Assembly: GCA_020137815.1 (NCBI GenBank)
Contig: CM035353.1
Coordinates: 124,001-188,000, forward strand
From: Hormiphora californensis
Taxonomy: Eukaryota; Animalia; Ctenophora
Reading direction: 5' to 3'
DNA: 64,000 nt
In this document: positions 5,759 to 63,832 of the stretch, piece after piece
Layout of the letters: each line of letters begins with the position of its first letter
Position numbering within the stretch: position 1 is the stretch's first letter
Notes under the pieces: generated by a model
Seen by the model: only the letters and a program-made list of their open reading frames with translations
The model's database searches: none
What the model was told of the DNA's origin: nothing
Translations under genes and position numbers: made by a program

Positions 5759-8700
5759 TCACAAAATGGAATTCCAATCGAAATTATCCTCGATCTCCTC
5801 TTCAGGAGGTCTCATGGGTGGATAGCCCAATTCGGATAAACCCTGAAATAAGATGCGACATGTGTTAGCAATATAACATGGTGGAATTGTTGAATTGTGA
5901 GGTATACTGTGAGAGACTGGGTTAATAAAATCGGAGGGTAACGTATAGTGTTATCCCATTACAATGAGAACTGAGGTATGTCTATAAAATTGGAAGAGAG
6001 AAGTAGTTCTCTTTCTTCCATGATGAACTTCATGAATCATGTAGTACATGATGTACCTGGGTTGGGTTGCTGGAAATGTATGTTGAGAAGGAGGCAGCTA
6101 GATCATTTAATTGTCCAGCAGAGAGGTTTAGACCGCTGTCCGTCTTGAAGCTCTCCATCAGGTGGTGGACCTGGAGGGGCAACATCTGTTCTCCGGTTAG
6201 TGCTCAATGGAGATGTATCATGGGGAGGGGGACAAGAGGAGGGTTAGTGCTCAATGGAGATGGAACCAGGAAGAGGGGGCAGGAAGAGGGGGCAAAAAAA
6301 AGGGGGACATGAATACAAAAAGGGACGGCAGAAGGGTCAAGGGTAAGTAGGGACTACGAAAGGGGGTCTGTGGGCCGTGGGGTCTATCGACATACCCTTC
6401 CGTCTTGACTGTAGTTAAGATTTCCCTTCGAACTGCTGGAATGCATCTGTGGCAAAGTCGGGTCTGTACCTGACAGAGTGACATGTGATAAATATCAAAC
6501 AGTACACTCAACTTATAACGATGCGAGTTATGTTGTAAGCCTCCTTTACATTGGTAACATACAAATAAAAGCATACTGTTAAATAGTTACAATATGTGTA
6601 TTACATACTTCCAATGAGTTGATTAGCCGTCTGACTATTGTTAAGATTCCTAAATTACTTCTTTAAAAAACCCGGCCGTTTTGTAACCCCCCGGGGGGGG
6701 GTTTTAACGGTTTTAAAAGTTAGGGTTGGTGAGGGGGGAAGGGGAAAAAAGAAAAAGGAGAGAAAAGGAGAGAGAGAAAAGGGAAAAAGGAGAAAGAAGA
6801 CGGAAAAGGAAGAAGAAGAAGGGGAAAGAGAAGAAAAGAGAGGGGAAGGAGAGAGAGAGAGGAAGAAGAGAGAGAAAAAAAAGAGAAAGAGAGAAGAAAA
6901 AGAGAAGAGAAGAAGAGAAAAGGAGAAAAGGGAAAGGGGGGAAGGAAAGAAAAAAAAAAGGAAAAAGGAAAAAGGGGGGGAAAAAAAAAAAAAAAGGGGG
7001 GAAAAAAGAGGGAATTTATGAATTATGTACTAACTGTTCAACCCTAAAGGCTAAAGTTTGGAATTTATTTGTAAAAGGGTTTCCAAAAGGGGGGTTCCCA
7101 AAAACGGGCCTTTTAAAAAAGAAAAAAAACACCCAAAAAGCCTATAAACTTTTTTTAAAGGTTACGAACTTTTTGACCGTTTAAAAACCTTTAAAAAAGC
7201 TTTTTGAAAGCGCTTTAAGGCAAAAAAGCGCTTTAAACGGACCCCCCAAAAACCCCAAAAAACCGCTTTAAAGCGCTTTAAAGCGCTTTAAACGCTTTTT
7301 TTAAAAAGCGTTTTAAACAGCGTTTAAAAAACCGCTTTAAGGGCCTTTAAAAACCGCTTAAACGCTTTTTTTTTCAAAATCCAAAAAAAAAACCTTTAAA
7401 GGCTTTAAAAAATCGCTTTAAAAAAGCGCTAAAAAAAAGGAAAAAAACGCAACCAAAGCCTTTTTAGCGCTTTAAGCGTTTTTTAAAATTTAAAAAATTG
7501 AATTGGTTTTAAAAAAAAGCGTTTTTTAAAAAAACCAAAAGCGGCAAAAAAAGCACTTTTTTAAATGTTTTAAAAAGCGCTACAAAGCGCTTTAAAGCGC
7601 TTTTTAAAGCGCTATAAAGCGCTTTATAGCGCTATAAAAAGCGCTAAAAAGCGCTTTTTATAGCGCTATAAAGTGCTTTTCAAAGCGCTATAAAGCGCTT
7701 AAAAGCGCTTTCGAAAGCGCTATAAAGCGCTTTTTATAGCGCTATAAAGCGCTTTTTATAGCGCTTTATAGGGTAGAAGGGCCACGGCCCTTGAACACCG
7801 CCACGTGGCGGTTTTAACCGCCACGTGGCCCCTGGACGTGGCGTCAATTCTCAGGACGTGGCGCCAATGAGCCTTTTTGGCGGTGTTCATGTGGCGTTAA
7901 TAGTCGAAATTGGCGCTTCGAATTGGCGCTTTTCTTTTTTGGCCCCAGGGACGTGGCGTTGGCCCCAGGACGTGGCGTCAATTTTTGAATGGCGGAGATG
8001 TCAAAATTTTTTGGCGCTTTCGGATGACGCCACACCCGAAAAATTCGAATCGCCAATTTGTTTTTTTGGCCTATCATTTGGCGCTAATTTTTGGCGCTAA
8101 TTTTTTGGCGCCATGTAAATTGGCGCCATATAAACTGATACTAGAAACCCCCTAGTGGCCCCTAGGGACCCCCCAGGAGGCGCTAGAGTCACCTAAAAGC
8201 CCCCTAGAAGGCTCCAAGAGACCCCTAGAGGCCACTAGAGTCGATTAGAGTCCCTTAAAAGCCCAGAAAGATCGCATGCAGCCCCAGTTGAGCACACAAG
8301 GCCCCCAAAAAGCCACCAGAGTTCTCTAGAGTCCCCTGAAACGCGCCAAGAGGACACCAGAGATCCCTGAATGCCCGTAGAAGTCCCTAAAGACCCAAAG
8401 AGGCCCCAAGGATTGAACTATTAAAAAAGAGCTGTGTTTATATGTTTATTATGTAAATATATCGCCATGTAAATGGCGCTAATAATTACTTTGGCGCTTT
8501 GATGTGGCGGAGTTTATGTGGCGCCAATTATGTGGCGTCAATTATTGACGCCACACCGAAAATTCAAAAAACCACGTGGCGCTAAAATCGACTAAAAATC
8601 CATTGGCGCCATCCTCTCAAATTGACGCCACGTCCTGGGGCCAACGCCACGTCCCTGGGGCCAAAAAAGAAAAGCGCCAATTCGAAGCGCCAATTTCGAC

Positions 8701-10075
8701 TATTAACGCCACATGAACACCGCCAAAAAGGCTCATTGGCGCCACGTCCTGAGAATTGACGCCACGTCCAGGGGCCACGTGGCGGTTAAAACCGCCACGT
8801 GGCGGTGTTCAAGGGCCGTGGCCCTTCTACCCTTTATAGCGCTTTAAAAAGCGCTTTATAGCGCTTTGTAGCGCTTTTCAAAGCACTTTTTAAAAGTGCT
8901 TTTTATAGCGCTATAAAGCGCTTTAAAGCGCTATAAAAAGCGCTTTATAGCGCTATAAAAAGCGCTTTTTAGCGCTATAAAAAGCGCTTTAAAGCGCTAT
9001 AAAGCGAAAGCGCTTTATAGCGCTAGAAAGCGCTTTAAAGCGTTTGAGAAAGCGCTTTATAGCGCTTTTGAAAGCGCTTTTAAAGCGCTTTAAAGCGCTT
9101 TATTTTTGGATTTTGAACAAAAAAAGCGCTTTATAGCGGTAGCGCTTTAAAGCGCTTTTGAAAGCGCTTTAAATTGCTACAAGAAACGCTTTAAAGCGCT
9201 TTTAGCGCTTTAAAAGCGCTTTAAAGCGGTGCGCTTTAAAGCGGTACCGCTTTAAAGCGCTTTATAGCGCTATAAAGCGCTTTCTCAAACGCTTTAAAGC
9301 GCTTTAAAGCGGTCGAAAATGTTCAGCCCAGAACTACCATATTACCACATTTAGTTACTCCTTTCCATCCAAAATATACTCTAATTTCCAGTCAAATTCC
9401 TTCCAACCCCTTCACTCACGGGATACAGAGAGTTTTTCCACGGTCACATTTCCATTACTCATAACAGGGGTGCTGTTGTTTCGTATTTTGGGAAGTCTGG
9501 GAGCTTTAGCGTGGTAGTTAACAAAATCTTCCTCCACCGGGGAATATGGGGACCGCTCCTGAGAAGGGGGACAAGGGGGTTAGTGAGATGGCAATGTAAT
9601 GGGGTTATGGGTGCTGATATATAGGATACGAATTACGAAGTTAGAGAGAGGGGGGAATGAATGGGATGATGGAAGTAATGTGTTAAGGGATGATGTCATA
9701 GTGTGTTAACACACAGCTTGGTATAACTACCACCAAGAGCGATATAATCCTCCTCCCATCCCGTGACTGTGGTTGTCAGGGCGACGCTCTAATCATGTAA
9801 TGACGTATGCACGATAACATTTCTACGCTTCTACACGGCATGACGGTACGTGATGGAGGTGCCAAGTGCGCGCGCCCGACTAGATGGTAGAATGGGAGGC
9901 TCGCGCGTTACATACATTCCACCGCCATCCAGGGAGGAGATGTTGGAGAGATGCCAAGACTCTGGCTTATAAGCATCGAACTATTAACTCTTCTTTCTTT
10001 CTCTCGTTCGGTGCGGAGAAAGAGAGAGCTGAGAGGGAGAGAGATAGATAGAGGGAGAGAGAGAGAGAGCAGTGT

Positions 10076-10112
<37 letters not shown>

Positions 10113-13100
10113 CAGTGTGAGAGAAAGAAAGAGAGCGACAGCTGGAGAATACCGGAAGATGTAGACCTGCTGCTAGGAGAGTAAAAAAAGATAGTAGACA
10201 CTTTGAGAACTTCCCATTTTAGCATCAAAGGACAATAGTGAAGTGTCTGACAAAGGATCCACAGAGCCTGCAATCCATTGTAACAGAAAATAGAAACAGA
10301 CACACAGTGATGGTTGCAGACAGCCAGGATCAATGTGGTGGCAATGCCACAGCCCCAAAAGTCACCGTGTTTTCTTGGATAATATGAAACCCTCTGGATC
10401 AAGAGAAGGAATAAGATGTAGTTTACTATGGCACTGTAAAAACGTCTGATACATGGTTGCAGTTATGTATGTGGTGTTCAATATGTTAGAAAATTGTTTG
10501 AAATTTAAAGAACCGAAACGGATGGGATGTTGGACGAGGATATGTAATGATAAATTGGTGTATTTGGTACTGTATACCGTGACCCCATAATCATACTTGA
10601 GGGTTAGAAAATAGCAACCATACTATTATTCCATATATGGCTATCGGAGGACTATCAGTATGCGAAATAAACGTCTACGAAGGGATAGATAGAGGAGCCT
10701 TTTTAGACTTTTGATTTCATAAAAACTGAAAAATGTGAGTTACACCACGGTTTTTTCTTCCAGTAAAAAACCCAGGAAGGTGGCTACTGTGAATTGTGAT
10801 GTTAGTATTGGAAGGTGGCTACTGTGAATTGTGATGCTAGTATTGAATTACCTTACTCAGATAAGTAGATCATTAGTAAGTCACCAAAGTCTATCATTAA
10901 TCATCGCTCATCTGTCTCCATGGCCTCCATTATCGATCACTCTCTAAAAGAGCCTACATTTCTCTCTCTCTCTACAGTAGTAACTGTCAAGAGCCAAGTA
11001 ATATTTATAGACGCTTACTACCTTTAACAGTAACATCTCTTCCCCTAATCGACTGTCAATATATTAAATATGACAACACAATGTCATGTAGTAATCTGTG
11101 GTGCTTAGAGAGAGAGATATGGAGAATTCAGAGGGGAGAGTCTAGAGAGATAGGAAGAGTCGACTACTGTATGAAGGGATAAACTGGAGGGAGAGTATTA
11201 GATAATGAACGATGTCAATTCTTTGTACAAAGGGCGTATATAAAGTTCCAAAAGTGATCAGATCTCGTTTAGTTATAACTTTCAAATGGGGCCCCCATGG
11301 TATGGGGTCATTTGTGTGTGTGTGTGAGAGAGAGAAAGAGAGAGAGAGTGAAAAGGAAGGAGATGTGTAACCAAAGAATTGTAAACTTATCGTTCCCTAT
11401 TTTGCCCTCCCTCCCACACAATCCTGCCTGTGTGCTGCAGTAGCAGTATCATGTTGTTATGTTCTAACACAGTCTAGCTAGGCAAGTACCATGATGATCG
11501 TCAGCAGATCTATACACTATCAATTCAAAACTTCATTTCACGTGCTCCCGGCTGATCCCGGTTCAAATGCTTTCAAATATCAGACTTACTCAGGAAGGAT
11601 TAAAAAATAGCTATTTGTAGAAATTTGGAGATAGATAATGTAAAAGGGACTGAGAACGGAAAGAGAGAAGAAATAGAAGGGGCGAATGATCTAGCACACT
11701 CGCTAAATTTGATTTTCTGTTCGGTCACATTATATAGATTATTAGGTAATGTAGGCGATTGTGGACATTGGCCAGACTTAATAAGAAGGTCCTACGTAGC
11801 TCAGCAGCTTGCTTAGGATATTTATGGTTAAAATTAGATAATTTGCTGCGACAGGATAACATAATTCTGGAACTTATTGGAATAATTGTTCTGAACCACG
11901 CTATAGGATACAGTCGTCTTATAAACGTTTCTGGTGCAGTCTACTACTATAACATGCCCCGTCATATTCATTGTAACACCACACCCGGGATAGGTTATTT
12001 CTCACCTCTCTCTCTCTCTCTCTACCGCGGGGCGTTTAACCTAGTACTATCTGAGTCTGCCGCTACCTACCTGTAGGAGCAATTCCCTCTTGTGGGTTTT
12101 GATAACCCTCTGCATAATTTACCTTTCTTCTCCTCTCTCTTTCTCTCCTTTTTCCTCGTCACCCCTCTTCCCCCCCCCCCGGGGGGGGGGGGGGCCCCCC
12201 CTTGGGAGGGAGGGAGGGACCATCTTTCATAGCGAAGGAGACCCCGGAAGTAAGAGAAAGAAGGAGAGAGAGAGGGAGAGAGAAAGAAGGAGAAAGAAAG
12301 AAGGAGAAAAAGTGAGAGGATGAGAGAGAGAAAGATAGCGAAGGGGAGAAAGAGATAGACAGATTATATAGAGAGGAGAAAGAGAGGGAAAGGATTGGAG
12401 ACAGAGAGTTTTAACTTGAATATGCTAAGTTGGACGAAGAAGATTGAAGAAACGGTCAGAAATACTGGCGTTTGATGGGAAAATATGTAGAAAGAAAGTT
12501 AGAAAAGAGAAAAGATTGGGGGATGATAGAGAGATGAACACGTGATTCATCTGTGTGATATTGATAAGCAGGAGGAAAGGAAAAGAGGATGGTGTTAAAA
12601 TTGAACACTGAGACTATCGCACTCATTGTCAGTTTTCATCTCTCTCTCTCTCTCTCTCTCTCTCTGCTCTCTCTCCTCTCTCTCTCCTCTTCCTCTTCTC
12701 TCTCTCTTTTCAGCTTTCTCTCTTTTTCCTCTCTCTCCTCCACTCTCTCTTCTTCTCTCTCTCTCCTCTCCTCTCCTTCATCTCCTCTCTCTCTCTCGTC
12801 ATCCTCTCTCTCTCCTCTCTCTCTCCTCTGCCTGCGTCTCTCTCGCTCCTCTCCTCTACTCTCAAATGCCGCCTGGTCTCCTCTCTCCTCCTCTGCCCCC
12901 TCTCTCTCTGTTCCTCCTCTCGCTGCGGGCCTATCTCTGAACCGCTCTCTCGTCCTCTCTCTCGTCTCTCTCTCCTCTCTCCCTCTCTCAGAAAGCTCCG
13001 CCCAACATGCATGCGATCAGATCACGTCACTTTATATGCACGTACTCTCATAAATGTGTGTATGTATGATAGAAGGTGAAAGAGCATCAATTTGATGCCA

Positions 13101-15744
13101 TTGAAACCCATTCTGGATCCCAGAGTCCAACCCCTAATGGCCTATATAATATCAAAAATTAAATCTGGTGTGTTGTCATTCTTGTTGTATCTTTGGTCCC
13201 TATGTAGCCTAAGTATCTCAATGTGATGACTTCATTCTTGGATTTTGACACCTACCCAGGCAGTTTGTCAACACGGCCTACTAATTAGTTTGTCACCTGT
13301 ATGTTTTACCATCATCTGTAGTAGTAGACCTCACAAAGGAGCCATTAGGCTCTGGGCTAACATTGAATATTTCTAGAGAAAACAGTGCAGATTCAAATGA
13401 GTTGACACGAACGGGGTGGTGCACTTCGTTGCGAAGTCACAGGGCACAATGTAATAATTTCATTACCAAGGGTTATACAGTATCGTGCGTGAATAAAAAT
13501 TCGTATTCGAGAATGCGGGAACGGAGAAACAACAATACAGTCGGACCCCGATTTACCGGGCAAAACCCTTCTAGCATCCCGGTAAATCGGGGGGGGGGGG
13601 GGGGGGGGGGGTGCCCGACTGTATATTATAACTTACCCCACAACTACTACTGCTACGTCTCTTCTTTTTGTGCGGGAAGGTAAACGAGACCCCTCTCCCT
13701 CCAGTTTGCTGTAATGATAGGTCCCGTTGTGGGGATAGTGTGCTTCCGTTCTACACCCTGATCCTCTGCCTCGCCAAGCATCCAATAGCACCCCTGAGAG
13801 AGAGGGGGATGTTAGCACGCACCCCTGTGTGGGAGAGAGAGGAGAATGTTAGGGATCCAATAGCACCCCTGTGTGGGAGAGAGAGGAGAATGTTAGGGAT
13901 CCAATAGCACCCCTGTGGGAGAGGAGAATGTTAGCAACCCTGTGTGGAAGAGAGAGGGGATCATGTTAGGGATCATAATAGCACCCCTGTGTGGGAGAGA
14001 GGAGAATGTTAGGGATCCAATAGCACCCCTGTGTGGGAGAGAGGAGAATGTTAGGGATCCAATAGCACCCCTGTGGGAGAGAGGGGAGAATGTTAGGGAT
14101 CCAATAGCACCCCTGTGGGAGAGGAGAATGTTAGGGATCCAATAGCACCCCTGTGTGGGAGGAGGGAGAATGTTAGGGATCCAATAGCACCCCTGTGGGA
14201 GAGGGAGAATGTTAGGGATCCAATAGCACCCCTGTGGGAGAGGAGAATGTTAGGGATCCAATAGCACCCCTGTGTGGGAGAGGGAGAGAATGTTGGGATC
14301 CAATAGCACCCCTGTGGGAGAGAGGAGAATGTTAGGGATCCAATAGCACCCCTGTGTGGGAGAGAGAGGAGAATGTTAGGGATCCAATAGCACCCCTGTG
14401 TGGGAGAGAGAGGAGAATGTTAGGGATCCAATAGCACCCCTGTGTGGGAGAGAGAGGAGAATGTTAGGGATCCAATAGCACCCCTGTGGAAGAGAGAGAG
14501 AGAGGGGGGATGTTAGGGATCCAATAGCACCCCTGTGGGAGAGGGGATCATGTTAGGGATCCAATAGCACCCCTGTGGGAGGGGAGAATGTTAGGGATCC
14601 AATAGCACCCCTGTGTGAGAGAGAGAGAGAGGAGAATGTTAGGGATCCAATAGCACCCCTGTGTGGGAGAGAGAGGAGAATGTTAGGGATCCAATAGCAC
14701 CCCTGCATGGGAGAGAGGAGAATGTTAGGGATCATAATAGCACCCCTGCATGTGGGAGAGAGAGAGGGGTTATCATGGTGGTACATTTTCGAAAGTTCTA
14801 GAACGGGAATCAATGACAAATATATCAGTGATCCCTTAGGGATCCTCGGCATAGCTATTATAGCAATTCCAAAAATTGAATTTAAGTAACTTGTGAATTG
14901 GACCCGAACTGTGCAGGAATAAACCATTTTATCATAATCTTATTTTTAACTTATTTTTTTAATTAAAAAAATATATAAATCACACAGAAAGACCTCAACA
15001 GTTTTAAAAATAAATCTTTGCCTCAGTTTTAAAGAGAACTGAGGGTTTAAACACACAGGGTGATGCGGATGAGAGTTTGGGGACCATCAAGTGGATGTAC
15101 ATGTACACCTTATAGCTTTCATGTACATCAGCTATTATCGGAAATTTATCTCTCTATAGTCCCTCGCTCTTGATCTCTCCTCTCTCTCCTCTCTCTCGTG
15201 GCTGCTCTCCCTTGGCTCTCGCTCTCCATCATCTTCTTCTGGCTCCCCTCCTCCTCCAATCGCGTCTCCCTCTCTCTCTCTTCTCTCTCTCCTCCTGTCT
15301 CTCGTTCTCTTCGGGGTCGCCATTGCCTCGCCTCGTTGTGCTCTGCCTGTCCTCAGTGCCTCTGGCATTTGCTGCTTTCTTTCGTTTCCTATCTGCTCGT
15401 GATCTTTTCTGTCTAATGTCCTGGTCACTGATCTCTCACTAGAATTGTGCCTCTCGTCTTCGGAGTTTCCGACCTCTACTTTTGACGTCAAAGACCACCA
15501 CCTTCAACTCAAGTACAGAGAACAGAGATCGAGATAGATCGCGATCGCGAGAGATAGCGCGTCTATAGATCGAGCGAGAAGCAGAAGAGAGAGAATATGA
15601 TAGATTTATCTCTTCTATCTTTCTCTCTCGAGCGCTCTCGCTCTATCTCCTCTATCTCGCGAGCTCTCTATCTCTCTCTCTAGCTAGCTCTCTCTTCGTT
15701 CTCTCTCTCTCTCTCGCTCCTCTCTATCTTCATCTCTCTCTCTC

Positions 15745-15775
<31 letters not shown>

Positions 15776-18034
15776 TATCTTCTCTTCTCTCTCCCTCGAT
15801 CTATCTCTCTCTATACTTCCTCTTCTCCTTTTTCTTCTCTTCCTCTCTCTCTCTCTACTCTTTCTCTCTTCTCTCTCTCTCTTTCTCCTCTCTCTCTTTC
15901 CTCCTCTCTCTCTCTCTCTCTCTCTCTCCCCCTCTCTCCCCCTCTCTCCCTAGTGAGATATTAGAGGAGAAGGAAATTATATGGGACGGTCTAAAGAATA
16001 AGACATGGAACGAAAAAAATGAAGAGGATTAATAATAATAAAGTTCTTTTGGTCCTGATTAACATGGTGAAATGGCTCTGTAAGTAGACCTCTTCCAAAC
16101 TAGATTTTGTATCGTACTACCACCAGGTGACGGTAGGATATTATATCAGCTGCATTCAGGGACCTTCATGACACCCATTATCCGGTCCCTTATCAGTGAG
16201 ATTCATGTTATAGCAGTGTGTGTATGTTATAAGATGAACATTATGTAGTGCACATGTTACATTAGAAGGTTGTAGTGCACATACCTTGAGGCGTGACGTA
16301 GACACAAAGAGGGCGTGTGTGTGTGCCTTATTGATAGTAAAGAGGGGTGCATAGGTTATAGGGGAGGAAGAGGAGAGGGGTACCATGTAGTATATCAAAT
16401 GAGGGTAGATTAGACATTATAGATATGACAGAAAGGAGGACCGGGGACTTCCAAAATCCAAGGAGAAACAAATATACAGTCGGAACCCGATGTACCAACT
16501 TGTTCATAATTTTAGCCCGAGATTAGTATATATAAAATTGGTGTCCGTAGTACATGTCAACACTAAATAAGGATCGTGATTTTTGCCCTATAGTGAGTTG
16601 GTTTCTCCCGCTGAGACTGTTTAAAACGTCTACATTTTCCGCCGAAGGAGAAAATCCATTCCCGTTACTATACATCTTGATTACTATTTTAATTCCATGT
16701 ATAATTCTTCTGGGAATGCCGGTAGGGAAACCTAACGAACTATCGCGACTTTCGTCAATACGATTTGGTCGACACTTTAGACCAAATACTCGTGAGTAGA
16801 ACCCATGTGAGTTTATATTCTATGTACAGTATCATTCGTATTCAAATCAAAAGTGAAGATAGGAAGTTCTTCTTTTTGAAGTGAGAGAGAGGTAAAGGGA
16901 GAAATAGAGGAAAAGTAGGAATCTGTAAATTCAGTTATCCAATTTAGTCCCCCACACACACACACACACCAAAGTGTGTGGAAGTGAGAGATATAGAAGA
17001 AGGAAAGAGGAGAGGAGAGAGAGAGAAAAGCAAGAGAGAGTGAGGAGAGAGAGGAAAAAGAGAGAAAGCTGCAAAAGAGAGAGAGAGAGAGGGAAGAGGG
17101 GGAGAGAGAGACGGAGAGAGAGCAGAGAGAGAGAGAGAGAGGGGAAATAGAGCTGAAAGAAAGATTTCGAGAGGGGGAGAGCTGAAGAGAAGAGGGACTG
17201 TGAGATTCAAGCATATCCTGCAAGATTGATGATCTATCGAAATAAGCTGGAACGCTGACAAACTTTTATCAATAACATATATGCTAGTATAACTTGTTGG
17301 TCAATATCTACAAATTTTGTACCTTGCCAGGGGTCGTTTTGTTCGGGGACCTTCTTAAGCAATTTGTTGAGAGTGCAATTATGTCTTATCGCTTCCCACG
17401 GGGGGAGGGGGTATAACGTTACCTTTGTGAACTGACTACTGGCGAAGCCCTCCCAACTCCCAGGGCCCCCCGAAGCTATAATTGCAGACGGTCACACCCC
17501 AACAGAGTAGCTCTTTGCAAGTTAATTTCTGTGCACAAATTCATTTCTTTAAAAACAATACAACTGTGTTGTCATATATATCTCACCTTCCATCCATTTC
17601 CAGCTCGTTTGTAGTAAGGGAAGTGGTGGAGTATCCAGCTGTAAATGTCACTCAGGGTTATCTTCCGTTTTTCCGAGGAGTTAATGGCAAAAGTAATGAG
17701 GTTAGCGTAGGAGTAAGGTGGCTTTACACCCGGGTTCTGGCTTTCTTTTGATGGCACGTATTTGGCGTTAATATCCACGATATGAGAACCGGATTTCCGA
17801 ACCTGACAGGGATCGATGCAATATTATACTATTTAATAAGATGATATGCATGTATACTAAACACCGTACAATGATCATACTGCAGTAGTACGTGGCATGA
17901 GGAAACAACCTGCAACAAACCTTGGGTGCATCTAGGACGTATTGTTGAGTTATATTATTGATTGGACCTCCAGCAGAGAGGCGCGGAAGCCAGTCCATGG
18001 CCGTAAGGCTCGCTGACAAGTCCGGGGCAGACAT
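5759..18034 (-). CDS. FoxJ2/3: Forkhead box J2/3 transcription factor; exons 18034-17921, 17802-17587, ~17397-17323, 13793-13637, 9558-9420, 6469-6396, 6170-6057, 5842-5759 (~323 aa)
   Basis: N-terminal DLSASLTAMDWLPRL. Forkhead domain KPPYSYANLITFAINSS...HFPYYKRAGNGWK | IRHN..LNK..KKVP...DPGK | GCYW. LMESF...DLAASFS motif and C-terminal EIEDNFDWNSIL*, matching FoxJ2/3 termini. Junctions are GT-AG and phase-consistent. Exon 3 is error-ridden and exon 4 has a 1-nt frameshift, both likely sequencing errors. Confidence 0.9.
7160..9329. mobile_element. Foldback-type element built of AAAGCGCTTT/TATAGCGC arrays, in a FoxJ2/3 intron
   Basis: Mirror-image arrays of the AGCGCT palindrome. Landmarks match in inversion: TTCAAAATCCAAAAA at ~7373 versus TTTTTGGATTTTGAA at ~9103. 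The left arm is degraded. Confidence 0.7.
7770..8833. mobile_element. Kolobok-like non-autonomous DNA transposon nested in the foldback array
   Basis: ~215-bp near-perfect TIRs starting AGGGTAGAAGGGCC and ending GGCCCTTCTACCCT. 4-bp TSD TTAT (7766-7769, 8834-8837). Removing the element restores the host unit GCGCTTTATAGCGC. RR..YY termini. Confidence 0.8.
13538..13621. mobile_element. Tc1/mariner (pogo-like) MITE
   Basis: TA|CAGTCGGACCCCGATTTACCGGG ... CCCGGTAAATCGGGG..CCGACTG|TA. Related ends at ~16477, ~18120, 25731 and ~54287. Confidence 0.8.
13780..14760 (-). repeat. Minisatellite, 38-44 bp unit, ~22 copies; the unit is the FoxJ2/3 exon-4 splice acceptor region
   Basis: Minus-strand unit CCCTAACATTCTCCTCTCTCCCACACAG|GGGTGCTATTGGAT. 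The last copy continues into the real exon (GCYWMLGE...). Confidence 0.92.
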
Positions 18035-19091: not shown

Positions 19092-19345
19092 ATCTGGGTG
19101 TTTGGAGGCCTGTTTACAGGTGCGCGCTGCCAAAAAAGTTGATTCACTAAAATGGCTCTAACTGCCAAACCACTCAACCGTTTTGGCTGATTCAAAGTTT
19201 ATCTGGTAGGGAATGTCAAGGCCTAACCCCAACCCAAACCCCAACCCAAACCCCAACCCAAACCCCAACCCTAACCCTAACCCTACTTTAGCCCTAACCC
19301 TAAAAAACCGTTTGTCAGCAGTCAGCACTCCCAAAACACCCAGAT
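19092..19345. mobile_element. Non-autonomous element with short inverted ends and internal telomere-like (CCCTAA/CCCAAA)n; Helentron/HINE-like
   Basis: ATCTGGGTGTTTGG ... CCAAAACACCCAGAT ends with T-rich flanks. Hexamer array at 19222-19303. A third copy of the end motif lies at ~18988. Confidence 0.55.
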
Positions 19346-21157: not shown

Positions 21158-23167
21158 ATGCGATCGGTTCTGTTTCTGACCGTGGTTCTCCTTTGTCTGG
21201 GGACAGCTACAAAAACTGTATCAGGTTAGTAAAGCGCCCCCCTCCCCCCAGTAAAGCCAATGAAACTGTTAGGAAAGCCCGACCACTATAAAACATGGTT
21301 AACCACTAACAAATTCTAATGAGAAGGATGGATATGTAACACGATACTTTTGTTAGTGGTCGGGCTTTCCTGACAGTGCGAACCAATTTGTGATGATTCA
21401 GCCAAGCAAGAACTAAACCCCAGTTATTTCTTTACCGTTGGTTCCAAATTTCTCTCAGACTGGACAGCTGTAGAGCAGGGTGTGAAGATACCCTGGGACC
21501 TGGAGGGAACAGCTCTCCAGATAAAGACGGACTCTACACTGGGTAGTGGTGAGGAGATCAGTGTGAAGATGTACGACAAGGACGGCAGCTTTATCAGATT
21601 TGTGGCTGTGAAGTTCTCCTCTCCAATGCAGTATTATGTAGGCTGGTGCAACTACTTCACAGACCTGCCAGTGCAACCCCCGGTGGAGGTGGATAAGATC
21701 TGGACCATCACCAAAACAGAGACCGGCTTCATCATCACATGTAACAATGTGAAGGTGCTGAACTACCTGTTCGCAGATAGTTCAGAGAGCAACTGTGTTC
21801 CAAAGTGGGGTGGTGATGTTGTGGAGGAGATCAAGTTTAGCAGCACTTATGACAAAGCATCTGACTTCTACAGAGCAGGTAAGGGTCTTGGTATCGAAGA
21901 CACCTCATACTCTGTTTAGGCTTCACGGCCTTCGTTTGGTGCGCTTTGCACACCGGCAAGTGAGGGGTCTAAATTTAATGTATAGGTCTGCCAGCCAGGC
22001 ACAGCATGTAATGTGGGTTTTTAATATTATACATTACGCATTAAGCAACGTGGTTCAACTATAATAATGATGGACCACATCGTAATTAGCTTTCCATAGC
22101 ATGTCCCCTGCAAACTGCAATTAACTCACACCAATTACAATTTCCATTCAGAAGCTCATTGTCCTGCCTTTACTGTTGAGTGATCAACACAAGGAAGCTG
22201 GAATGCCTCACCAACCGGGACAACTGCAAATCGATGTGGCAGCTTGCCAACCTATCCTAAATCCTTCGGGAACTCTGATATCTACTGTCTTGGGGATCTG
22301 TCATGGGAGTGATGTACCACAGTGTGGTAAATCTGGTAAGTATATTTTGTAAAAGCAGCTCATTGGCCATATCATAAATCGTTCGAAAGGAACGATGTTG
22401 AGTACTGTTCTCCCCTCTGGTCACCATGCAAGATTGGGAAATGCAACGTTTGAGGAGTCCAGAGGTACTTCACGCGAAAGATTGAAGAGAGCTACGGCAT
22501 GAACTAGTACTGGGAACGCCTTCAGCACCTCAAGATTCTCTCACTGCAACGAGAGAAAGAGAGAGACGAAGACAATATCATCACGCCGTGGAAAATCATT
22601 CCGAAATGGCTCCCAAACTCCAGGATGACATATTCTATCGGGAAGAAGAGCGGGGGCGTGTAAAGCTACTCGACCAAAGCTATATACAGATGCACAGGAC
22701 TCCGTTCAATCGCTCAGAGATGAATCATTCAATATGAAAGCTGCTCAACTCTTCAACAGAATCCAAAAATCGTACGACGATCTACAACTCTAGAAAGGTT
22801 AAAGATCGAACTGGGAAATATGCTTGAAACCATTCCTGACTACCAGCTCCTGCTAAAGGAAGGCATATAGTAAAGCTCACTTCACAACCACTTCACGCGG
22901 ATACATTTGTTGAGTGCGTGGTATAAATTCTTGTGATATAAATATTTTTAAATCTTGTAAATCTTGTAAACTCTTGTAAACTCTATCTTTCAGTGTGCCC
23001 CGGGTTTACCGTGGATGGGTCAGTACAAGGAAGTTGGACCGAAATAGATCCAGGAGAGACAGTGACCATCAACTGTCAGAAGAAGCATGTTCTGGACGGT
23101 AGCTCTAAGAGGACCTGTAACGCTGACAGAGAGTGGAATATTGATGCTCCTCTCTGCAGGAAACTGA
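21158..23167 (+). CDS. Secreted protein: signal peptide + ~140-aa ctenophore-type beta domain + two Sushi/CCP-like modules; exons 21158-21224, 21459-21878, 22152-22334, 22994-23167; 3' end not found
   Basis: MRSVLFLTVVLLCLGTA signal peptide. All introns are phase 1, GT-AG. CPGFTV...TINC...SSKRTC...W...PLC Sushi pattern. Exon 3 has a TGA and frameshifts (sequencing error or pseudo-exon). Confidence 0.75.
21266..21378. mobile_element. Small MITE in intron 1
   Basis: ACTGTTAGGAAAGCCCGACCACTA / TAGTGGTCGGGCTTTCCTGACAGT inverted repeat. Confidence 0.65.
22360..22860 (+). mobile_element. Degraded CR1-group LINE RT C-terminal fragment in an intron
   Basis: Fragments EYCSPLWSP, VQRYFTRKI and YWERLQHLKILSLQR, with frameshifts. 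Confidence 0.75.
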
Positions 23168-24123
23168 GTGAGTATTCTGCAGGAAACTGAGTGAGTATTC
23201 TGCAGTCAGGAAAGGGTTTGGTTACACGTAATGGGCGCCGGCAAGGGGTAATTCTCGTGCTAGTATAGTCCAATCGATTAAAGAATGTCAAATGAGCCAT
23301 ATAGTGAATAAGATTGATATCTCCTTCCGGCTGGATAAATTATAAACGGGTATTTTATTGTAGAACGGGTATTTTAATGCAGGACAATCAACCGATCCTT
23401 TATCTCTGAACCATATAATTTAGCTGTAAAAAGTTGGGCAACTTTTTGCGGTTATTTATTATAAATTTTGATTTTTGGTGTCAATTTAACGGGACAGACT
23501 CTACTACGCTGGAATGTAGTGTAATGATACATTATCGCTCACTGCTCAGTTCCATTCTAAGGCTGACATTTCCAGTGTTTTTCTGCGGACACGTCTTTCG
23601 TAGCTCTCGTGGGAAAAATTAGGAAAGTTGAGGCTAAAAGATTGTATCGATTTGCGGGGGCGTAGTAAGAACTTCACCATGTAAAATCCACTACAAGAAA
23701 AAACCGTTGCATTTTTTAGCTGAGCCGATAACTAGATCTACGCCTCTCCCAATTCATAATCGCGCCTTTTTTTATTGCACTTGATACAACATCTGAAGTC
23801 TGAATGGGCTCTGAATATATTATGTTACTTTTCACAAACTGTTTTGTGTTGTTATCGAACAGTTGGAATCATTTCACAGATTTTTTGTCCGATTTTGATG
23901 AAAGTTTGTACAAATTAGGATCGTTTCGTGTGATTATAATGATCATTTAGATGGTTTTCCCGTAATCAGTTATTATATCCCGTTGGAGAAGATATAAATG
24001 TAAATGCAGAGCTTGCACGTTACATGCTACGTTTAAGACACTGACAGCGATACGTTCATCGTTCATATAATTTCCTCTAGCAGGAACTCTGATCCAGAGT
24101 GTTTTAATAAATATGATATATAT

Positions 24124-31600: not shown

Positions 31601-34120
31601 ACCTAACATGATAACCGACCCATTCTTCGTGAATATAATACAGTGCTCATGAATTAATTAACCTAACATGATTTAACCGACCCATTCTTCGTGAATATAA
31701 TGCAGTGCTCATGAATTAATTAACCTAACATGATTTAACCGACCCATTCTTCGTGAATATAATGCAGTGCTCATGAATTAATTAACCTAACATGATTTAA
31801 CCGACCCATTCTTCGTGAATATAATGCAGTGCTCATGAATTAATTAACCTAACATGATTAACCGACCCATTCTTCGTGAATATAATACAGTGCTCATGAA
31901 TTAATTAACCTAACATGATTTAACCGACCCATTCTTCGTGAATATAATGCAGTGCTCATGAATTAATTAACCTAACATGATAACCGACCCATTCTTCGTG
32001 AATATAATACAGTGCTCATAAATTAATTAACCTAACATGATTTAACCGACCCATTCTTCGTGAATATAATGCAGTGCTCATGAATTAATTAACCTAACAT
32101 GATTTAACCGACCCATTCTTCGTGAATATAATACAGTGCTCATGAATTAATTAACCTAACATGATTTAACCGACCCATTCTTCGTGAATATAATGCAGTG
32201 CTCATGATTAATTAACCTAACATGATAACCGACCCATTCTTCGTGAATATAATACAGTGCTCATAAATTAATTAACCTAACATGATTTAACCGACCCATT
32301 CTTCGTGAATATAATACAGTGCTCATGAATTAATTAACCTAACATGATTTAACCGACCCATTCTTCGTGAATATAATACAGTGCTCATGAATTAATTAAC
32401 CTAACATGATTTAACCGACCCATTCTTCGTGAATATAATGCAGTGCTCATAAATTAATTAACCTAACATGATAACCGACCCATTCTTCGTGAATATAATG
32501 CAGTGCTCATGAATTAATTAACCTAACATGATTTAACCGACCCTTTCTTCGTGAATATAATACAGTGCTCATGAATTAATTAACCTAACATGATAACCGA
32601 CCCATTCTTCGTGAATATAATGCAGTGCTCATAAATTAATTAACCTAACATGATAACCGACCCATTCTTCGTGAATATAATGCAGTGCTCATGAATTAAT
32701 TAACCTAACATGATTTAACCGACCCTTTCTTCGTGAATATAATACAGTGCTCATGAATTAATTAACCTAACATATATTTCCAGTTTAACTCAGAGGTAAA
32801 TGACACCATTTGTCATTTGACGAAACTCCGAAACCTATGCGAGGAAATCCTTGACTTTAAGATAGCGGAAATAAAGAAGCGTGGAAGTGCAGATCCTACT
32901 GACATCCTGCACCATGTAGTGGAGGCTGGTATCGCTACTGCCTCCGTCAATAAGGGAGGGTACAGTGAGGAGGATATGAGGATCAACGCCATGGATGATA
33001 TCATGACGATATTCCTCGTTATCGTAAGTAGTTGCAGATCTGATATCAATAGATAATCGTAATTGTTCTATTACTGTAATTATAGGGGGCCGGTACTGCA
33101 CCTTCTCTCTCTCTTGCAAGATCTTGTTGAGTAATAATACACAACAACATATCTCTCACGATAGCATATAATATACCTCCAATCTCTCTTATCTTAAATC
33201 AACACCTACACCCCATAGGATAACATGGCCAAGACGATGGCAACGATTCTAGTTCGCGTCATTCGAGATGAACAGATCTACAAGAAGGTGTGTGAGGAAG
33301 TGAGGCAGGCTAAAACTGATGATCTCCTGGCCATGGATAAGAGTCTAAAATACACAGAAATGGTATGTTACACGCAGAACTAATTGATAATTACCATGGT
33401 AATCTGGTTACCATGGTAACCACATTGTGAAATGGTAACCATACACCCACATAACAGTATACATTTTTCCTCTCAGGTAATTCTAGAAGCTTTACGACTC
33501 CATCCCACCCTCATGAGAGGCATCCGTAAAACTGGACCCAAGGCTATAACCCTAACTAATGGAATGGTGGTTCCGGAGAAAACGATGATCTTCTTTGGGC
33601 AACTTGTTCTACACAGGCACCCCAAATATTGGGCGGATCCACTTGAATTCAAACCAGGTCAGTTAATCGAACTTAGAATATAACATTATCCAGAATAGGA
33701 ATCCTTGTCGTGACAATAGATCCTTCTCGCACTAAAGATCTTTCCGAACCGCATGTGACATTACAGTATAGTAGTATTAACATGTTATACCATGCCTTTC
33801 CAAACCGCATGTGACATTACAGTATAGTATGGCTTAACATGTTATACCATGCCTTTTCAGAGCGCTGGGAGAACGGATCGCGTGACGTCACACCCTTTAC
33901 ATATCTTCCATTTGTTGCGGGACCCCGTGTTTGTATGGGGAAACATCTCGCGATGATGAGTATGAAAATGGCCATGATTCACACCCTCAAGAACTACAAT
34001 ATTAGACCTGTACCCGGGACGGAGAAGGAAATGGATTGGGATTATAGGTTTACTATTGTTAAGCCAACAAAGGGGCACAAGGTTATATTTGAACCTGTTC
34101 AACAACCAACTGAAAGTTAG
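25620..34120 (+). CDS. Cytochrome P450, clan-46-like, 520 aa; exons 25620-25642, 26661-26840, 27002-27077, 27717-27799, 28397-28528, 28676-28788, 29582-29712, 32784-33023, 33219-33362, 33477-33657, 33861-34120
   Basis: All ten introns are GT-AG and phase-consistent (1563 nt). N-terminal TM followed by PGPPR, then WxxxR (WASKR), ExxR (EALR), PERW and heme motif FVAGPRVCMG. GPPRTS and TLFGQRITG resemble CYP46A1. Confidence 0.93.
25731..26588. mobile_element. pogo/Tc1-like non-autonomous element in CYP intron 1
   Basis: TA|CAGTCGGACCCCTATTTAACGG start and a degenerate inverted end. Internal inverted block at 25850-26085. Confidence 0.6.
27080..27465. repeat. 12-bp minisatellite (CAAGTCATCTCT)n starting at the donor of CYP exon 3
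   Basis: Tandem copies, degraded at the 5' end. It explains the spurious Ser/Leu-rich ORF 27067..27492. Confidence 0.8.
29003..29490. mobile_element. Foldback MITE with ~200-bp inverted arms in CYP intron 6
   Basis: AAAGTGAGAGTGGACCGAATCAGAATTGGACAAGTTTGTTGTAGGT... / ...ACCTACAACAAACTTGTCCAATTCTGACTCGGTCCACTCTCACTTT. Confidence 0.85.
29804..32773. repeat. Homogeneous 60/62-bp satellite, ~49 copies, filling CYP intron 7
   Basis: Unit GTGCTCATGAATTAATTAACCTAACATGAT(TT)AACCGACCCATTCTTCGTGAATATAATRCA. It ends ~10 nt before the exon-8 acceptor. No unique spacers. Confidence 0.97.
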
Positions 34121-43560: not shown

Positions 43561-45836
43561 TTATTTACATCCCTTGTGAACGAAATCTCCGTTCTCCAGA
43601 ATGATAATTTCATCGTGCTCCTCCTCCTTGAATGGCTGACCTGCACGTACAAATATTGTGGATTATAATCTATCTAGATCATCTAGCAGCTACTGAGCAG
43701 CTACTGAGCTGCAGAGAGACAATTATGGGGGGGGGGCAGTCGTGCCTGAATCTCAGGTTCAGGTAACGGCTATTTACCCCTGATACCTGAGATCTCAGTG
43801 GCCAGGGCTACTCTTGGCTATTCCCTGAAAGTTTCCCTGAAATAGCCGTCACTGACCCCTGCAAGATCTTGCAGGGGTCAGGGTAACTCGGTACTATAAT
43901 GTCCTACGATCCGTATGGCGGGAGACACACTGAAGTTGGGCGCACTCGTTCAAATCTCAACCTCGCGACACACACTGAAGTTCGAAGTTCGAAGTTTCGA
44001 GAAAACCAATTTTCGGCTGAGAAATCATTTGTAAGAGTCTAACTTATTTACTGGTACATCTCTCGAGGTGTCCTTTATCCATACTGAGTCAATTTCACGG
44101 TTTTTGAAATTTTTGGCCAATCCGGTCACTGCAGTTGTCGGTAGGCGGTAAATGTTAACCAGATCTGAGAGAAAACGTACGTGCAAAACCACGTTTTTGT
44201 CCATAACTCAGTCATTTCTTGACCAATTTGCAAAATCTTGGGCGCGTTGGAAAGAGGACATTGAGCTCTTTCAAATGAGCCCAATAAAACTAAAATCGGC
44301 GCAAAATGCGCGGCGTCATGGCGCAAAACGCGCGTTTTCGCCACCACGCCGCGCAATTTGCGCCAATTTTAATTTTCTTCAGCTCATTTGAGAGATCTCA
44401 ATGTCCTCTTTCCAATGAGCCAAAGATTTTGCAAATTGGTCAAGAAATGGCTGAGTTATGGGGAAAAACGTGCGAAATTCTCACAGATCTGGTTAACATT
44501 TACCGCCTACCGCAGTTGTCCGGGTCCCAATTCACCAAAATTTTTAAAAACGGTGAAATTGACCCGGTATTGATAAAGGACACCTCGAGAGATGTACCAG
44601 TAAATAAACTAGCATCTTACAAATGATTTCTCAGCCAAAAATGGGTTTTCGCGAAACTTTGAACTTTTCCGCGAAACTTCGAACTTCAGTGTGTGTCGCG
44701 AGGTTGAGAGTTGAACGCGCGCGACCAACTTCAGTGTGTCTTCCCCCCATCAGGAACCGACCAACACAAGTAAACAACCAATCAGAACTAGTGATTTAGG
44801 TCACGTGACTGGTTATCAGCCAATCAGGGACCAGTATTTCCTGATCCGAATCACCTACCGCACTTCTTGCAGTTGACACAGGTGTAATGGTAGTGAACAT
44901 CCTTGTAGATGAGCCTGTTTCCAATTATCGGCTCCCCGCACACTCCACACTTTGCAACAAAGTTCTTGGTCTGGCATCGGTGGCAGACTGGTCGGTCTAA
45001 TGGGAGAGAGGTGTTTCATTATAGGTAGTGGCAGACTGGTCGGTCTAGCAGATATATGGGAGTGAGGTGTGTGTCGTTATAGTGGCAGACTGGTCGGTCT
45101 AATGGGAGAGAGGTGTGTCATTATAGGTAGTGGCACACCGGTCGGTCTAATGGGAGAGAGGTGTGCCATTATAGGTCGGTCTAATGGGAGAGAGATGTTT
45201 GTCATTATAGGTCGGTCTAATGGGAGAGAGATGTTTGTCATTATAGGTCGGTCTAATGGGAGAGAGATGTTTGTCATTATAGGTAGTGGCAGACTGGACG
45301 GTCTAATGGGAGAGAGGTGTTTCATTATAGGTAGTGGCAGACTGGTCGGTCTAATGGGAGAGAGGTGTTTCATTATAGGTAGTGGCAGACTGGTCGGTCT
45401 AGCAGATATATGGGAGAGGTGGGAGTGTCATTATAGCTGTAGTTTCTGGTTTGGCAATTAGAATAAGAAGAACATTTGGTGTTCAAACAATTCACAATTG
45501 TTAATTAAAGTAACCTTACCATTTTTCACGTAGAAGGTCTCCTTGGCATCCACGACCCTGCTACAGACTCCACAAGTGAAGCAATCCTGGTGCCAAAAGT
45601 GGTCAAGACCTATGACCCAGTGGTTGGCAATGGTCTCATTGCAGGCGTGACAAATCCTGAAATTAGTTGTTTGATAATTAACAAATAACACGACAAATTC
45701 TTTCATAAAAGATCGACAATGATCCAGCTCGATGCTGAATGCTCATATTTAGTCCACGATCGTCGATCATAACCATGAAAACAAAAAATGTTTTCTTCAA
45801 GTATAATGATTTTACTCACTTCGGTCCTTCAGACAT
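43561..45836 (-). CDS. Small two-LIM-domain-only protein (123 aa); exons 45836-45820, 45656-45520, 44996-44859, 43640-43561
   Basis: CHAC...WHQDCFTCGVC...VCHRC and CGVC...YHYTCVNCKKC...VHKGC LIM patterns. GT-AG junctions are phase-consistent. Confidence 0.9.
43915..44750. mobile_element. Foldback MITE with ~400-bp inverted arms in LIM intron 3
   Basis: GACACACTGAAGTTGG...CAACCTCGCGACACACACTGAAGTTCGAAG mirrored at 44675-44742. Mirror ORFs 44126- and 44306+. Confidence 0.88.
44751..44848. repeat. Short dispersed repeat (CAGGAACCGACC...AAACAACCAATCAGAAC...TAGGTCACGTGACTGGTTATCAGCCAATCAGGGACCAGTATTTCCTG)
   Basis: Recognised from recall as an abundant Pleurobrachia-type repeat. Only one copy in this window, and not verified by search. 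Confidence 0.55.
44980..45420 (-). repeat. Minisatellite, 36-48 bp unit, ~10 copies; the unit is the LIM exon-3 splice acceptor region
   Basis: Minus-strand unit ...CACCTCTCTCCCATTAG|ACCGACCAGTCTGCCAC. The last copy runs into the exon (DRPVCHRC). Confidence 0.9.

Positions 45837-49000: not shown

Positions 49001-63832
<14,832 letters not shown>

Follow-up and report, generated by a model that had tools for sequence, protein, structure and literature searches.

Mirage minisatellites have been described in amphioxus, in the genes for Adh3, troponin C, the globins BflGb6 and BflGb9, and PGBD5. According to the accessible text of the two reports, the splice signals are kept and the copy number is variable, while splicing is reportedly undisturbed (PMC3087553, PMC3902484). 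The unit size is given as 10-160 bp in the accessible part of the first report (PMC3087553). Two human loci are also close relatives of this arrangement. A 37-bp VNTR in intron 7 of F7 contains pseudo-donors that are functional but silent, as stated in the available sections of its source (PMC1557585), and the CBS allele c.844_845ins68 is a duplication of an intron end (52 nt) together with an exon start (16 nt), as set out in the available part of the corresponding paper (PMC7490669). Our search of the literature, with most subscription papers lying outside its reach, found no mirage-type repeat in a ctenophore, and such repeats are unmentioned in the accessible portion of the Hormiphora genome paper.

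We have analyzed a stretch of 64,000 nucleotides from the ctenophore Hormiphora californensis (hereafter the window, whose own numbering is used throughout). The intron-3/exon-4 boundary of its FoxJ2/3 gene has undergone tandem duplication, generating an array of the mirage type. The amphioxus mirages, in the accessible accounts of them, are likewise tandem repeats across an intron-exon boundary, many of whose units keep their splice signals.

Results

An array of acceptor copies at the start of exon 4

The array lies on the minus strand at 13794-14764. It consists of 23 units, and also takes in the intronic part of the first acceptor. TRF matches the region 13819-14764 with a period of 44, 22.5 copies and a score of 1246. 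The assembly shows 24 AG|GG junctions, of which 23 belong to upstream copies and the last is the terminal acceptor of exon 4. The first junction is at 14746/14745; the terminal AG occupies 13795-13794, and exon 4 opens at base 13793. Each unit is made up of the start of exon 4, a branch-point word, a pyrimidine tract and YAG.

An earlier note on this DNA had described about 22 decoy acceptors, in units of 38-44 bp with the pattern CCCTAAC-pyrimidines-CAG, every one encoding GCYW. The array is indeed present, but the upstream copies number 23, and the quoted length holds for 18 of the 23 units within an overall range of 27-49 nt. The pattern was correct in outline but slightly too uniform: YAG terminates all 23 units and CTAAC is found in 22, but CCCTAAC in only 20. 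Nor does every copy encode GCYW. The codons at the start of the copy read GCYW in 19 of 23, GCYY in two, GC-stop in one and GCV in one.

The 23 units include 16 distinct sequences, with six identical 44-mers. Concerted evolution of the inner units, alongside divergent boundary units, is a trait of mirages; comparison of the FoxJ2/3 units, made without a tree, marks out 1 and 23 as divergent, but also 19 and 20. Rare unit variants have words in common with the native upstream flank; elsewhere in the window the core words of the array occur only as a single 9-mer at 9465. The last unit (13794-13824, minus strand), ending in the authentic acceptor, has the top acceptor score of the 24.

The host gene and its conserved acceptor

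The host gene runs on the minus strand. Its first coding exon was located by tblastn at 17921-18034, and exon 2, which encodes the initial half of the forkhead domain (model positions 2-48 of PF00250, and tblastn), at 17587-17802. The 72 residues of exon 2 match the forkhead PF00250 with E=1.2e-16 and share 88% identity with a protein from Mnemiopsis that clusters with Bolinopsis records named 'forkhead box protein J3-like'; full-length matches in other animals are ~56-64% identical. Exon 3 (17323-17398, tblastn E=0.005, start approximate) spans helix 3 to wing 1. The homolog sequence here is NSIRHNLS...PGK, recognizable but garbled in the assembly, with a phase-0 donor after 17323. Intron 3 is 3529 nt in length, against a median of 227 nt in the window. 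Exon 4 (13637-13793; GCYWMLG...KKRRSSSSCG) has a strong donor after 13637, and exon 5 (9420-9558; ERSPYSP...) is in phase 0, which fits only if the length of exon 4 is divisible by three. Later exons, with the C-terminal acidic ...DNFDWNSIL motif, were matched by tblastn at 5762-6650. Homolog residues ~233-300 gave no tblastn match at the locus, where there is a low-quality stretch near 6700-7500.

The assignment of the gene to FoxJ2/3, already made in the earlier note, is upheld by the forkhead match, by FoxJ2 and FoxJ3 as its closest named relatives, by the conserved intron before G[S/C]YW and by the C-terminal acidic FDW motif, all assessed without a tree. GCYW lies towards the end of the forkhead domain as matched by Pfam (P0003, 66-142), and homologs and related loci agree that the acceptor of the array is the conserved junction before G[C/S]YW at this point of the domain, as had been proposed.

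We compared 26 related loci, none of them from the source species. A phase-0 acceptor is found directly before G[S/C]YW in 11 of these, and none of these 11 genomic homologs that reach the acceptor, all from more distant animals, has a tandem repeat there. Five more, two of them ctenophore-like, are spliced at the G[S/C]YW point without insertion, and the remaining 10 do not display the junction. The one ctenophore-like genomic locus, L002, breaks off within exon 3, before the acceptor is reached; at 770-888 it has an additional intron within the stretch corresponding to the single exon 2 of the window. In ctenophore proteins, as in two ctenophore-like transcripts, GCYWM follows PGK immediately; these come from other species, which are not known to have the array. 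A 22-nt exon-4 pattern had no matches in metagenomes. Because the acceptor is conserved in 11 of 26 loci without a tandem repeat, the terminal junction would appear to be an old, conserved splice site to which the array was added later.

Other repeats in the window

A second acceptor-spanning array is present in a LIM-domain gene (44996-45420, minus strand), with 10 junctions in 44996-45398. Its units are ~34-54 nt and include up to ~17 exon bases, and all nine upstream junctions lead to a stop.

Several introns in the window have repeats adjoining the acceptor. In an intron of a cytochrome P450 gene (29823-32773, plus strand) a 60-bp unit, which includes a CCTAAC word as well as YAG sites, is repeated 48.5 times, and the array runs straight into the true acceptor at 32784. 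Three acceptor-side duplications occur in a coiled-coil gene on the plus strand (54764-55251, 55458-55584 and 55889-55956), comprising 10.8 copies of a 38-bp pyrimidine-CAG unit, 3.8 copies of a 33-bp unit with AG|GT junctions just before an acceptor, and a two-copy acceptor. Two-copy duplications of 47 and 56 bp lie just upstream of acceptors at 6195-6290 (minus strand, FoxJ2/3) and 33740-33856 (plus strand, P450). At a sushi-domain exon (23153-23205, plus strand) a 23-bp duplication crosses the donor, i.e., a donor-side mirage. A large inverted-repeat element at 7260-9311, inside an intron of FoxJ2/3, has AAAGCGCT-rich arrays at both ends and looks like a non-autonomous DNA transposon. A short telomere-like (TTAGGG-type) tract at 19222-19303 lies in a repeat element situated upstream of FoxJ2/3.

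Are such duplications directed to acceptors? In the window, boundary-spanning duplications are found at 2 of 40 acceptors compared with 66 of 3008 background YAG sites (2.2%), p=0.22; on these window data a genome-wide targeting of acceptors is rejected. For intron-side duplications the figures are 4 of 40 and 21 of 1000, with p=0.013 when five large arrays are excluded from the background and p=0.62 when they are included. Tandem repeats are plentiful in this genome. That boundary-spanning duplications are not enriched over the YAG background speaks for a genome which is prone to repeats and puts up with copies of this kind, and not for a system aimed at acceptors.

Acceptor strength and sequence context

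Acceptors were scored with a matrix trained on 39 other hand-annotated acceptors of the window; all our scoring matrices rest on 37-39 sites. The terminal acceptor scores 14.9, the highest of the 24, and the upstream copies score 8.4-13.1. All 23 copies thus outscore the median true acceptor (6.5), and the earlier view that they bear full acceptor signals is confirmed.

The sequences that follow are quite different. Over the first 50 nt the purine fraction is 0.30-0.42 after the copies, compared with 0.68 in the terminal exon and 0.44-0.80 in 37 other exons of the window, and the longest pyrimidine run is 11-23 nt after the copies compared with 3 after the terminal site. When donor-like sites were scored from the start of the array into the following intron the true donor was the best (9.2); sites in the array reached at most 3.5, apart from one of 6.8. 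Sequence strength therefore separates the terminal site from its copies little, but context does so sharply. Some leak to the upstream acceptors is nevertheless plausible, since the copies outscore the true-acceptor median and the nearest of them would make exons of ordinary size, 187-302 nt where real exons in the window are 38-420 nt.

We also considered recursive splicing and micro-exons. Such use is judged unlikely, since the junction reads AG|GG with GT coming after it, and the unit donors score 3.5 compared with a true-donor median of 7.2. The single donor site of 6.8 would leave an intron of 29 nt, where the shortest annotated in the window is 100 nt.

Products of the upstream acceptors

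The product of each upstream acceptor was translated in phase 0 for this haplotype. From 22 of the 23 a stop is reached after 2-112 residues, within the array or early in exon 4, and the nearest upstream acceptor (+31 nt) shifts the frame. None of the 23 opens into exon 4 by a stop-free, in-frame insertion in this haplotype, and the insertion isoforms that the earlier note envisaged are consequently rejected. Every stop in an upstream product precedes several later exon junctions. A premature stop upstream of later exon junctions is the usual signature of NMD. The truncated isoform that had also been suggested can be written on paper, as the forkhead plus 2-112 residues, but is unsupported, its premature stops having just this signature.

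If the copies were used at a meaningful rate, they would form a field of poison acceptors, and the length of the array would tune the share of FoxJ2/3 mRNA that is lost to NMD. The elements for this are in place, with 23 of 23 copies above the true-acceptor median, CTAAC kept in 22 of 23 units and a stop or frameshift in every upstream product, yet the sequence past the copies is unlike that of real exons. The exon-proximal unit varies between short-read contigs (see below), but no such repeat occurs at this acceptor in any of the 11 genomic homologs reaching it, all from more distant animals. Moreover, a similar stop-ridden array exists in the unrelated LIM gene (nine of nine upstream junctions leading to a stop), this class of repeat is not enriched at acceptors, and the known mirages are described as silent in the accessible text of the reports (PMC3087553, PMC3902484). 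On balance we consider use of the copies at a meaningful rate to be unlikely. A broader proposal would have the array act as a heritable field of poison acceptors, variable in length, that sets the dose of FoxJ2/3 by NMD. In this view the mirages of ctenophores, with two arrays of 10 and 24 junctions within 64 kb, make a test bed for the choice among near-identical 3′ splice sites in one of the earliest-branching lineages of animals. The proposal seems to us decidedly doubtful.

Could the upstream acceptors instead yield a stable, forkhead-only isoform lacking the C-terminal motif and acting as a dominant negative? The 19 of 23 copies that complete GCYW, close to where the Pfam forkhead match ends, would add tails of about 18-112 residues before the stop, but these tails are heterogeneous and repeat-derived, and the basic KKRR stretch that ends exon 4 would go missing. 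The stops are upstream of several junctions, and such a tail is absent from 96 hits of 127-2000 residues, which do not include the protein of the source species itself. An isoform of this kind is thus very improbable.

The array in short-read contigs

Short-read contigs were taken from three DNA runs, X1, X2 and X5, of which X2 and X5 belong to different studies; run X8, RNA by guess, had no contig at exon 4. The head-to-tail joints 13860->13819 are present in contigs of both X2 and X5, i.e., in two studies. Read depth over the unit is raised in all three DNA runs, to ~4, 6 and 95 times that of the flank, values that are ratios and not copy numbers. The comparison spanned one and a half units next to the exon, and the number of copies is a figure from the assembly. 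Within this span the exon-proximal unit varies among the X1, X2 and X5 contigs, whose depth gives no copy number. The last unit is 4 bases shorter in an X1 contig, and in an X2 contig it shows 6 gap letters and differs in 4 further letters. With the shorter X1 unit, use of the preceding acceptor would give Gly-Cys-stop, as read by hand.

As assembled, exon 4 is 157 nt long, its GCYW frame is interrupted by a stop, and its final codons match the homologs in another frame. The X1 and X5 contigs are one base shorter across the exon (142->141 and 183->182 letters), giving 156 nt, and differ from the window there by clustered substitutions and gaps at 13655-13707. Since both contigs have the shorter length, the break in the frame is most likely an error of assembly; an exon 4 of 156 nt is therefore in frame with exon 5. 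Stretches having the quality of raw long reads occur at 6700-7500, 12640-12990, 15150-15950 and 17320-17400, and gene breaks at these positions are suspect. Just past the exon-4 donor, at 13534-13630, there is a very abundant short interspersed element, with a depth ~1000 times that of the flank in the DNA runs.

The patches of raw-read quality, the garbled exon 3, the frameshifted exon 4 and the one region not found might suggest an artefact of assembly, or an array in a dead gene, but this is scarcely credible given the head-to-tail joints and raised unit depth in short-read contigs from two studies, an exon-4 length that is in frame in X1 and X5, and an exon 2 that is 88-90% identical to its ctenophore homologs.

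Discussion

We conclude that the FoxJ2/3 array is a mirage minisatellite whose 23 spare acceptors are probably skipped, the spliceosome probably using the terminal one. The CT-rich tract may have seeded the array, through slippage or through unequal crossing-over. The terminal acceptor alone leads straight into a real exon and its donor, and would be selected by exon definition across a purine-rich exon of 156 nt in the setting of a 3.5-kb intron. From what is generally known of splicing, purine-rich enhancers would favor the real exon and CU-rich sequence would disfavor the copies. Exon definition seems the simplest account of the choice of acceptor. Rare mis-spliced products would be removed by NMD, leaving the array close to neutral, and a near-neutral mirage at a conserved forkhead acceptor is the most likely state of affairs.

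The importance of this is modest; the locus extends mirage-type repeats to the ctenophores by an unusually long acceptor-side case. As a natural substrate the array bears on how one acceptor among 24 is picked. There is also a warning for annotation, in that copies within the array mimic acceptors and encode GCYW. The array would carry more weight only if the copies turned out to be used in a regulated or allele-dependent manner.

How does the array compare with the systems already described? Judged by the accessible reports, its unit of 27-49 nt falls within the 10-160 bp range of the amphioxus mirages, and amphioxus BflGb6 similarly contains copies of an intron 3′ end and exon start, although with 3-6 copies in a cephalochordate compared with 23 in this ctenophore. 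Silence and length polymorphism have been demonstrated for the amphioxus mirages in those accounts, whereas the likeness of the FoxJ2/3 array rests on features defined by sequence. In the human F7 VNTR, going by the available sections, the exon-adjacent unit holds the authentic site, as it does here. That repeat is on the donor side, however, and is explained by 5′-to-3′ scanning, while the FoxJ2/3 array is on the acceptor side; the scanning rule is not directly transferable because the exon-adjacent site of FoxJ2/3 is the most downstream. The human CBS c.844_845ins68, from the available part of its description, is a polymorphic allele with two copies in which splicing was measured, compared with the 24 that we know from sequence in FoxJ2/3. 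The duplicated boundary is nevertheless of the same type, and there it is the downstream acceptor that is used, the upstream copy being excised (PMC7490669).
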